A stretch of 17,603 nt of DNA, taken from the sequence record MG766218.1; one strand, given 5' to 3'. Below the pieces are notes generated by a model, which was not told the DNA's origin, searched no databases, and saw only the letters and a program-made list of their open reading frames with translations. The stretch comes from Staphylococcus phage vB_SauP_phiAGO1.3. The first letter of the stretch is position 1. Every line of letters starts with the position of its first letter. Positions 1 to 17,603 of the stretch are shown piece by piece. The position numbers and the translations under genes are program-made.

Positions 1-317
1 AAATATAATTAGGGAAAAAGTTAGTATAAATTTACACCTCCCCACCGTTTAAAATAAACGATTATAAAAATCAAAACTTATAAATTCACTTATCATTTCT
101 TTACTAAACGATTATAAAAATCAAAACTTATAAATTCACTTATCATTTCTTTACTAAACGATTATACAAATCAAAACTTATAAATTCACTTATCATTTCT
201 AAACTAAACTTATAAAAAACTGTTCAACAACTTAACTAACTTATCTAACCTATTACATATTCATCAAATACAAAATTTATACATCTATTGACTTTTATCA
301 AAAGTTATGATTGGAAC
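1..317. repeat. Left inverted terminal repeat (ITR) of a linear protein-primed phage genome
   Basis: The reverse complement of the last ~266 nt of the window matches nt 1-317. Positions 1-105 are identical except for one mismatch at position 9 (left ..ATAATTAGGG vs right ..ATAAATAGGG). The inner ~110 bp is about 85% identical with a 1-bp indel. Homology ends at ..GTTATGATTGGAAC (317). Confidence 0.85.
56..205. repeat. Tandem 50-bp direct repeats inside the left ITR: two identical copies and one variant copy
   Basis: The unit AAACGATTATAAAAATCAAAACTTATAAATTCACTTATCATTTCTTTACT occurs at 56-105 and 106-155. Copy 156-205 is a variant (ATACAAA; ..TTTCTAAACT). Confidence 0.9.
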
Positions 318-382
318 ATAAAATCTAATTTCTTCTATTAAATAGTAGTTTTAAATTATTTAAACTTTTTTAAGAAAAACTT

Positions 383-412
383 TTGACAAAACTTTTAAAC
401 GTTTGCTATACT
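383..412 (+). promoter_or_regulatory. Early sigma-A-type promoter: TTGACA, 18-bp spacer, TG-extended -10 TGcTATACT
   Basis: TTGACA at 383-388 and TGCTATACT at 404-412. It lies about 30 nt upstream of the AGGAGGT Shine-Dalgarno (431-437) of the first + strand ORF. Confidence 0.7.
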
Positions 413-444: not shown

Positions 445-747
445 ATGGTTAATGTTGATAATGCACCTGTAGAAAAAGGTCAAGCATATACTGAAATGTT
501 GCAACTATTCAATAAACTTATTCAATGGAATCCAGCTTATACATTTGACAATGCTATTAATTTAGTATCGGCTTGCCAACAACTATTATTAAACTATAAT
601 AGTTCTGTTGTTCAATTCTTAAATGATGAACTAAACAACGAAACTAAACCAGAATCTATTTTATCTTACATTGCTGGTGATGACTCAATAGAACAATGGA
701 ATATGCACAAAGGATTTTATGAAATGTATAACGTTTACGTTTTTTAG
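445..747 (+). CDS. Early protein of unknown function (100 aa)
   Basis: ATG at 445 preceded by AGGAGGT with 7-nt spacing. It is the first gene downstream of the early promoter. No recognisable motif. Confidence 0.7.
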   Translation: MVNVDNAPVEKGQAYTEMLQLFNKLIQWNPAYTFDNAINLVSACQQLLLNYNSSVVQFLNDELNNETKPESILSYIAGDDSIEQWNMHKGFYEMYNVYVF

Positions 748-16891: not shown

Positions 16892-17263
16892 CTAATCTAA
16901 ATCTAACTTATCTACTAATTCTTCATCAGAATAGTCTTTATCTTCTTTATCTGCTTCTGTAACATCTGGTTGTGTTGGTTGTACTTGTTGTGGTTGTTGC
17001 ATTTGTGAAGATAAAAAAGTAGTCACTTGTTGTTCTAATGAAGTAATACGTTGCTCTAATACAACAGGGTCAAATTTCGAACTATCTTCATCTGTTATAG
17101 TAGGTTCTAATTTGTTTTCGTTTTCTTCTTCGATTGTTTCTACTGTTTTATCTTCAGTTGATTCTTCAGTTGATTCTTCAGTTAATTCTTCAGTTGATTC
17201 TTCAGTTGATTCTTCTGTTGATTCTTTATCGTCTGGTTTTACGATTTCATCAAATTCTGTCAT
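16892..17263 (-). CDS. Highly acidic repeat protein (123 aa), a candidate scaffolding or inner-core protein
   Basis: It is the first gene after the right-end promoter, with RBS GGAGGTG. It carries about six ESTE tetrapeptide repeats followed by a Gln-rich predicted coiled coil (LEQRITSLEQQVTTFLSSQMQQ) and has a very low pI. Its position relative to the capsid gene resembles phi29 gp7. Confidence 0.55.
   Translation of the reverse strand: MTEFDEIVKPDDKESTEESTEESTEELTEESTEESTEDKTVETIEEENENKLEPTITDEDSSKFDPVVLEQRITSLEQQVTTFLSSQMQQPQQVQPTQPDVTEADKEDKDYSDEELVDKLDLD
17156..17227 (-). repeat. Six tandem 12-bp in-frame repeats (AGTTGATTCTTC) encoding ESTE units
   Basis: Read directly from the sequence. 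One unit carries AGTTAATTCTTC (encoding ELTE) and the last unit is degenerate. Confidence 0.85.
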
Positions 17264-17291
17264 TTAGACACCTCCAAATATTTTATAACTA

Positions 17292-17321
17292 ATTATATCA
17301 TAGAATATTTAAATAAGTAAA
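17292..17321 (-). promoter_or_regulatory. Right-end late/structural operon promoter on the - strand: TTTACT, 18-bp spacer, TG-extended -10 TGATATAAT
   Basis: The -10 is the reverse complement of 17292-17300 (ATTATATCA) and the -35 the reverse complement of 17316-17321 (AGTAAA). It lies about 25 nt upstream of the GGAGGTG RBS of the first - strand gene. Confidence 0.6.
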
Positions 17322-17337
17322 TTAATTTTATTATTTT

Positions 17338-17603
17338 GTTCAAATCATAACTTTGAATAAAAGTCAATAGATACCTAAATTTTGTATTTGATGAATATGT
17401 TATAGGTTTGATAAGTTGGTAAAGTTGGTGAACAGTTTTTATAAGTTTAGTTTAGAAATGATAAGTGAATTTATAAGTTTTGATTTGTATAATCGTTTAG
17501 TAAAGAAATGATAAGTGAATTTATAAGTTTTGATTTTTATAATCGTTTATTTTAAACGGTGGGGAGGTGTAAATTTATACTAACTTTTTCCCTATTTATA
17601 TTT
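17338..17603. repeat. Right inverted terminal repeat (ITR)
   Basis: This is the reverse complement of the left end. It is 51 bp shorter because it carries one fewer 50-bp repeat copy and has a 1-bp indel. Confidence 0.85.
17449..17548. repeat. Tandem 50-bp direct repeats inside the right ITR: two copies, one perfect and one variant
   Basis: These are reverse complements of the left-end unit. Only one perfect copy plus the variant copy are present, so the ITRs differ in length. Confidence 0.9.

Follow-up and report, generated by a model that had tools for sequence, protein, structure and literature searches.

Unequal copy number of a 50-bp tandem repeat in the inverted terminal repeats of Staphylococcus phage phiAGO1.3

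Results

Layout of the terminal repeats

The window analysed here is the whole 17,603-nt stretch of record MG766218.1, that is, the genome of phiAGO1.3 at the length of 17,603 bp at which it was announced together with its sibling phiAGO1.9 (PMC5920172). Over its whole length it shares 90-93% identity with the P68/44AHJD/SAP-2/66-like Staphylococcus podoviruses (Rosenblumvirus). The genome is linear and carries inverted terminal repeats (ITRs), within which a segment of 50 bp is iterated at both ends. The features that concern us are the following, in window coordinates.

1-54, plus strand: left terminal ITR segment, presumed replication origin core; begins 5'-AAATATAA and equals the right end save at position 9 (T)
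55-59, plus strand: TAAAC, outermost copy of the 5-nt direct repeat flanking each unit; further copies at 105-109, 155-159 and 205-209
60-109, plus strand: left unit A1, 50 bp; same sequence as A2 and right unit A
110-159, plus strand: left unit A2, the extra unit without a right counterpart; 100% identical to A1 and equal to the 50-nt gap in the alignment of the two ends
160-209, plus strand: left unit B, with C at unit position 8 and AA at 42-43; equal to right unit B and to the SapYZU01 allele
210-226, plus strand: inner near-perfect ITR with the A-run 214-220, which has one A more than the right end or any relative
227-344, plus strand: degenerate inner ITR, sharing about 89% identity with its right-end counterpart until about 321; holds a TTGACT block kept across relatives
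383-412, plus strand: strong sigma-70-like promoter of the left early operon, TTGACA-18-TATACT with TG, inboard of the array
17260-17444, minus strand: right inner ITR, near-perfect as far as 17429 and degenerate beyond
17292-17321, minus strand: promoter-like site of the right-end operon, TTTACT-18-TATAAT with TG, inboard of the array
17445-17494, minus strand: right unit B, identical to left B
17495-17544, minus strand: right unit A, identical to left A1 and A2
17550-17603, minus strand: right terminal ITR segment; the counterpart of left position 9 (window 17595) is A, read on the reverse strand

Tandem Repeats Finder reports a period of 50 bp at 55-218 on the left (3.3 copies, score 293) and at 17445-17554 on the right (2.2 copies). 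Read from the terminus inward, in the register starting at G, the units follow one another as A-A-B on the left and as A-B on the right, where unit B differs from unit A at unit positions 8 (A/C) and 42-43 (TT/AA), and where all three copies of A are identical to one another, as are the two copies of B. The perfect 100-nt tandem on the left is far beyond chance. The repeat finder, the unit comparison and the gapped alignment of the ends thus bear out the three units against two described in an earlier note on this sequence, although its picture of three alike left copies has to be given up, the identity holding for the first two only and the third being of type B.

A gapped alignment of left positions 1-226 with the right end leaves only three differences, namely position 9, the 50-nt gap and the A-run at 214-220, which has one A more on the left. 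This last difference is the 1-bp indel that had been placed near the terminus; it sits immediately inboard of the array. Once the single 50-nt gap is allowed, the two ends agree almost perfectly over about 226 nt at the left terminus and 175 nt at the right. An ITR of this length is long for this kind of phage, and it then passes into a degenerate tail, the ends being about 89% identical inboard of 226 to about 321, with traces up to 344. The genome announcement calls this inner ITR "less perfect until position 344" (PMC5920172), and its account corresponds to the window ends compared without a gap, with a mismatch at 9 and a first register difference at 117, where the A of left unit A2 faces the C of right unit B. 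In contrast to the present analysis the announcement names no 50-bp tandem repeat and no 3:2 copy number; the feature is nevertheless already implicitly in print, as an "imperfect" ITR.

In the related phage P68, a terminal protein is reported to be covalently bound to the 5' ends (Vybiral 2003, as cited in PMC6346686). From these protein-linked termini and by analogy with phi29, we take phiAGO1.3 to replicate by protein priming. Both of its ends start 5'-AAATATAA, and the reiterated AAA is a fit for sliding-back initiation, as in phi29 with its likewise linear genome. The first 7 nt of phiAGO1.3, AAATATA, equal the core ITR of the phi29-like phage MG-B1 (PMC6266182).

One-base differences at the termini

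In the 12 relative ends and the one Logan contig (L016) that extend this far, the terminus reads ...AATAGGG, in full AAATATAATAGGG, while the left end of SAP-2 departs from it with ...AATCGG. The window termini, AATTAGGG at the left end and AAATAGGG at the right, have one base more than these relatives at each end: window 1-10 and 17594-17603 read AAATATAA-N-TAGGG, with N standing for T at the left terminus and for A at the right one, against AAATATAA-TAGGG in the relatives. The T/A mismatch reported at position 9 in the earlier note is therefore correct in that the bases do differ, but the comparison with relatives recasts it as a one-base length change shared by both ends. Either a single insertion common to both ends and followed by a substitution, or residual base-calling errors in run-off reads, would account for the extra base. 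Each of the small oddities of the window is a change by a single base in the length of a homopolymer or right next to one (TT for T and AAA for AA at positions 8-10, A7 for A6 at 214-220). One-base errors in homopolymer length are typical of 454 chemistry and of the final bases of run-off traces, and these small differences could be either real or residual errors.

In several other records (L007, L010, L008 and the right ends of L002 and L012) the very first bases are TAAATAT instead of AAATAT. The leading T probably reflects the non-templated A that Taq adds at the ends of run-off reads.

Evidence that the unequal copy number is genuine

A tandem repeat next to a genome end invites mis-assembly, and the earlier note had offered collapse at the repeat as one of two explanations. 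The genome was sequenced by 454 Titanium at 80-91x with the assembly controlled by restriction mapping, and the terminal repeats were re-sequenced by Sanger from virion DNA with primers sited in unique sequence (PMC5920172). In the window each of these primers has one match, at 481-505(-) and at 17114-17136(+), from where they read outward through the left and the right end, which lie 505 and 490 nt away, respectively. Together with the length and the ITR description, these primer sites identify the window as the published phage. Since both primers are unique, each array is crossed by one anchored read, as follows from the published method rather than from the traces themselves. Collapse of the assembly is thus unlikely and largely excluded.

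A broader version of this idea, in which the true unit count is equal at the two ends and the 3:2 state, perhaps along with the small differences, comes from mis-assembly or base-calling, strikes us as very improbable. It can draw on the facts that the first assembly was built on 454 sequencing, which tends to miscount homopolymers, that all three small peculiarities are homopolymer-associated and make the window the odd one out among the relatives reaching the position, and that public records of the genus are often damaged at their ends, by adapter, fold-back or truncation. However, Sanger run-off reads of about 500 nt cross arrays of 110-164 nt with unique sequence on the inside and the physical end on the outside, 454 Titanium reads exceed the array in length, the assembly was verified by restriction mapping, and the ORFs of the genome interior are intact and full-length. 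The sibling phiAGO1.9 also speaks against it, having been independently sequenced and given the same ITR description at a length of 17,637 bp (PMC5920172). By the published lengths it exceeds phiAGO1.3 by 34 bp, that is, 36 bp for one extra repeat in ORF20 less 2 bp elsewhere, which excludes a 50-bp difference and implies the same total of five units, an arithmetic that concerns the total only. The 2 bp that phiAGO1.9 lacks elsewhere could correspond to the two extra terminal bases of phiAGO1.3.

The repeat in ORF20 (16892-17263, minus strand) is an in-frame 12/36-bp coding tandem repeat, acidic and E/S/T-rich, at 17126-17226, of which phiAGO1.9 carries one further 36-bp unit (PMC5920172). It constitutes a second repeat-number polymorphism of the lineage and shows slippage at that site.

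The stock could also be a mixture of molecules with two, three or more units per end, from which the consensus took a different majority at each end. We consider this improbable, if somewhat less so than an outright artefact. A perfect 100-nt tandem is an unstable substrate, and the ORF20 repeat differs between phiAGO1.3 and phiAGO1.9, which come from the same sewage sample (PMC5920172); yet a mixed template would superimpose the Sanger traces past the array, of which PMC5920172 reports nothing, and the implied total unit count is equal in phiAGO1.9. Such heterogeneity overlaps with the explanation we prefer below, the mechanism being shared and only the fixation of the state being different.

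Two of the damaged records deserve mention. In the CSA13 record (L013, MH107118) positions 1-27 and the last 27 nt are the Illumina adapter GAGTTCAGACGTGTGCTCTTCCGATCT, abutting AAATATAATAGGG. This is contamination, which also marks the physical end of the genome, adjoining AAATATAAT; those 27 nt are presumably included in the 234 bp given in print for the CSA13 ITR (PMC6356323). The Pabna record (L003, MH972260) has 128 nt ahead of the consensus terminus, so that AAATATAAT begins at 129; this leading stretch repeats the ITR in inverted, degenerate form, and the right end of the record stops inside the repeat, which looks like an artefact of fold-back or of a circularised assembly.

Copy number across the genus

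Following the comparison proposed in the earlier note, we examined both ends of 15 complete genomes of relatives. The 50-bp segment is contained in 29 of these ends, and it is single-copy in every one (29/29). The exact-protein lookup of ORF19 pointed to 10 further relative right ends, nine of them truncated or already in the set, while that of ORF01 gave no match. The unit-unit junction CATTTCTWWACTAAACGATTATA had no match in IMG/VR, in GTDB genomes or in JGI metagenomes, and none among 50,697 phage genome records spans it. Judged from these sequences, the array is private to the phiAGO1.3 lineage.

Other members of the genus have duplications of their own close by. Pabna has a separate subterminal duplication of 32 bp (x2.3) flanked by an 11-nt repeat, AAACTTATAAA; GRCS has 84 bp in two copies, present at both ends; and vB_Sau-F2 has subterminal tandem periods of 84 and 47 bp. 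As in phiAGO1.3, these are head-to-tail copies of ITR that is normally single-copy, in the AT-rich zone inboard of the conserved terminal stretch of about 55 nt; in GRCS, however, the copy number is equal at both ends, in contrast to the 3:2 of phiAGO1.3. Since the duplications of these sister phages differ in period and boundary, they are independent events, and the subterminal zone is a recurrent duplication hotspot in Rosenblumvirus.

Origin of the array

Both in the window and in the single-copy relatives, the 50-bp segment is flanked on either side by TAAAC. At the bracket, the single-copy relatives read AAAATAAAC-G...ACTAAAC-T, and the bracketing repeat extends imperfectly to about 15 nt (TAAACGATTATAAAAA versus TAAAC-TTATAAAAA). 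A segment bracketed in this way is a classic substrate for slipped-strand or microhomology-mediated duplication. The expansion and contraction by slippage that the earlier note had put forward is thus supported by the TAAAC brackets, by the single-copy state of the relatives and by the independent duplications of sister phages in the same zone.

Hairpin- or cruciform-driven slippage, like a structured origin, was considered and rejected, as the single-stranded DNA folds no better than shuffled sequence, either over 1-230 (z = +0.48) or within one unit (z = -0.36).

Unit A and the adjoining 40 nt on its outer side match the PSa3 right end exactly, and unit B is the allele that SapYZU01 carries, in single copy, at either end. 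Furthermore, AA at unit positions 42-43 always goes with C at position 8 and with an inner flank of the AAAAACT type in the relatives, and it does likewise in the window. A simple duplication followed by random mutation must remake this second natural allele at three sites, whereas a single unequal exchange or template switch joined within TAAAC yields the A-B dimer in one step and is therefore preferred. With moderate confidence, we read the A-B dimer as a recombinant that may have arisen by unequal exchange or template switching between two ITR haplotypes, a reading that builds on three sites, all polymorphic in the genus. Alternatively, the TT/AA difference could be one templated change copying the adjacent TAAAC.

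The events can then be pictured as follows. An illegitimate join between the bracketing TAAAC repeats would have created the A-B dimer, through polymerase slippage or template switching or, more likely, through unequal exchange of two ITR haplotypes, one (A with its outer flank) as in the right end of PSa3 and the other (B with its type of inner flank) of the SapYZU01/SAP-2 class. In a second step the dimer would have been copied to the opposite end, by the process that keeps the ends alike; the A-B junction and the alleles are identical at both ends, which implies transfer of the dimer from one end to the other. Finally, the 50 nt of perfect homology would have promoted further slippage or unequal exchange, through which one A was gained on the left or lost on the right, giving 3:2. 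The perfect A-A pair on the left would on this account be the younger, one-step gain, unless the right end has lost one A.

Taken together, we think it likely that the array is an ordinary, recent and lineage-private duplication. It would have arisen at short direct repeats through slippage or unequal exchange, spread to both ends and then changed by one unit, gained or lost, at one of them, with a near-neutral effect.

Similarity of the two ends

The second step calls on a process that keeps the ends alike, and concerted evolution of the two ends is indeed seen in the genus. Over the outer ~92 aligned columns, left and right ends differ by 1.1% within a genome, whereas the distance from one genome to another is 6.6%; a within-genome value as low as this was reached in 0 of 5000 label permutations. 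The two ends are identical in 9 of 13 relatives, and the other 4 show 2-4 left/right differences. The premise that terminal repeats are normally kept identical, from which the earlier note had started, thus stands as a strong tendency in the genus but not as a rule. Elsewhere, the core ITRs of the phi29 group measure only 6-7 bp (PMC6266182) and the ITRs of betatectiviruses are imperfect (PMC8234876). With 4/13 relatives differing as well, unequal ends are therefore not exceptional. The betatectiviruses Sato and Sole resemble phiAGO1.3 in being protein-primed with imperfect ITRs (74 bp), although in their case the imperfection is not given as a difference in tandem-repeat copy number (PMC8234876).

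Among the relatives, the two ends of PSa3 (L002) carry unlike alleles, both for the 50-bp segment and for its outer flank, with 4 differences in the ~92 columns. PSa3 is thus a natural genome with two ITR haplotypes, the substrate required by the unequal-exchange model.

A further parallel is found in adenovirus, which shares with Rosenblumvirus protein priming, an ITR length of about 100-200 bp and the concerted evolution of its two ends. Adenovirus ITRs are held identical via panhandle intermediates. In Rosenblumvirus, by contrast, the ends are not always identical, as the 4/13 relatives illustrate. Replication of the phi29 type copies each end from the corresponding parental one, and a change at one end is therefore inherited until the next homogenisation. 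We know of no end-to-end copying process described for the phi29 paradigm, where the ITR is 6 bp. Against this background one could tentatively regard the 3:2 state as an intermediate in the concerted evolution of the ITRs, in which the A-B heterodimer, created by unequal exchange between two ITR haplotypes, has been copied wholesale to the other end while the newer change of one unit is still uncopied. We hold this stronger version to be possible, with the odds leaning against it. If true, it would provide sequence-level evidence of active end-to-end copying, panhandle-like or recombinational, over about 200 nt in Rosenblumvirus.

Possible roles of the array

The array lies close to a presumed origin, and the earlier note had suggested that it could serve as a binding platform for a terminal or nucleoid-type protein. 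In the form in which each unit binds a p6-like protein or the complex of polymerase and terminal protein, with selection for additional units that strengthen origin firing, we judge this highly unlikely. The suggestion is not without appeal. Like phi29, phiAGO1.3 has a non-coding AT-rich stretch at 50-125 nt from the ends, the zone where p6 of phi29 nucleates (46-68 on the left, 62-125 on the right; PMC4974454), and the 50-bp segment falls at a similar 55-110 nt from the end. The segment is conserved, with 40 of its 50 columns invariant and a mean major-allele frequency of 0.96 against 0.88 just inboard, and AA/TT spacing contains a weak component at 24 bp that ranks within the top 4.5% of windows across the genome, with 7 periods tested.

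However, conservation of the segment is equally explained by its membership of a homogenised ITR, and the marginal 24-bp signal is lost on correction for the 7 periods, while the 12-bp and 10-11-bp components are not raised and no phasing at 10-11 bp is seen. The iteration is missing from the 29 relative ends as well as from the phage records, IMG/VR, GTDB and JGI metagenomes. Multi-copy conservation of the unit among related replicons, as expected of iteron-type origin repeats, is thus not seen, each relative end that contains the segment having one copy; the copy numbers in the relatives fit slippage and count against an iterated platform. Within phiAGO1.3 itself the units are unequal between the ends of one viable phage, and the sister phages duplicate differing, overlapping segments of 32 and 84 bp, which argues against a favoured unit boundary. 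phi29 differs in having an ITR of only 6 bp; its p6 recognises bendability, not sequence or a repeated unit (PMC4974454).

On the protein side, we detected no p6 homolog in phiAGO1.3, with no match to a p6-like protein in PHROGs or Pfam and with a PDB sequence search of four early proteins leaving three without a match; at the same sequence level, PHROGs, Pfam and PDB gave no terminal-protein homolog. PHROGs matched only families of "unknown function", an SSB, the packaging ATPase and the DNA polymerase (phrog_1907 "DNA polymerase", E = 8e-201), whereas Pfam yielded nothing meaningful, with no match to the polymerase at the threshold used. The earlier suggestion of an iterated platform is thus not sustained. 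Binding by a single copy of the segment, by analogy with phi29, is a possible candidate role.

The protein encoded by ORF01 (445-747, plus strand, 100 aa) matches the Andhra tail-tip protein gp1 (PDB 8ej5_B, E = 2e-32). In a 2019 paper on phiAGO1.3 two candidates are named for the terminal protein, ORF01 being one; the tail-tip match argues against it and leaves ORF07 (2193-2684) as the other candidate.

A promoter or terminator inside the array was likewise ruled out by the site scan, which found four promoter-like sites, with site counts equal to the shuffle expectation and no promoter or terminator within 55-210 or the right counterpart. Most likely, the extra units act only as additional spacer, about 50-100 bp long, separating the origin core (1-59) from the conserved block and the promoters that lie inboard, and we assume that they are probably near-neutral.

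The inboard block, at window ~232-320 and 17334-17385, carries TTGACT at both ends of every relative, with the -10 hexamer absent at a spacing of 16-18 nt, and could be a regulator site or an unusual promoter. Further inboard, at ~251-366, the left ends of SapYZU01, ESa4, S24-1 and S13' (L005, L006, L007, L010) have tandem repeats of 35-36 bp in 2.3 to 3.3 copies, each with TTGACA. These appear to be duplicated -35 regions of the left early promoter, of which the window has a single copy (TTGACA at 383; equivalent region ~350-412).

Discussion

The analysis reveals no new kind of element or mechanism. What it adds is modest: a near-perfect ITR of 226/175 nt, an apparently recombinant dimer within it, an extra base at both ends, and a duplication hotspot in the subterminal zone.

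For P68-like therapeutic phages, it means that the ITRs exceed the published descriptions in both length and mutual similarity if tandem duplications are taken into account, and that a difference between the ends of such a genome can be real and should be left "uncorrected" in assembly. To our knowledge, the homogenisation of ends has not been studied in this phage group. The number of units at each end offers a natural marker with which its rate and direction can be followed in a protein-primed phage.
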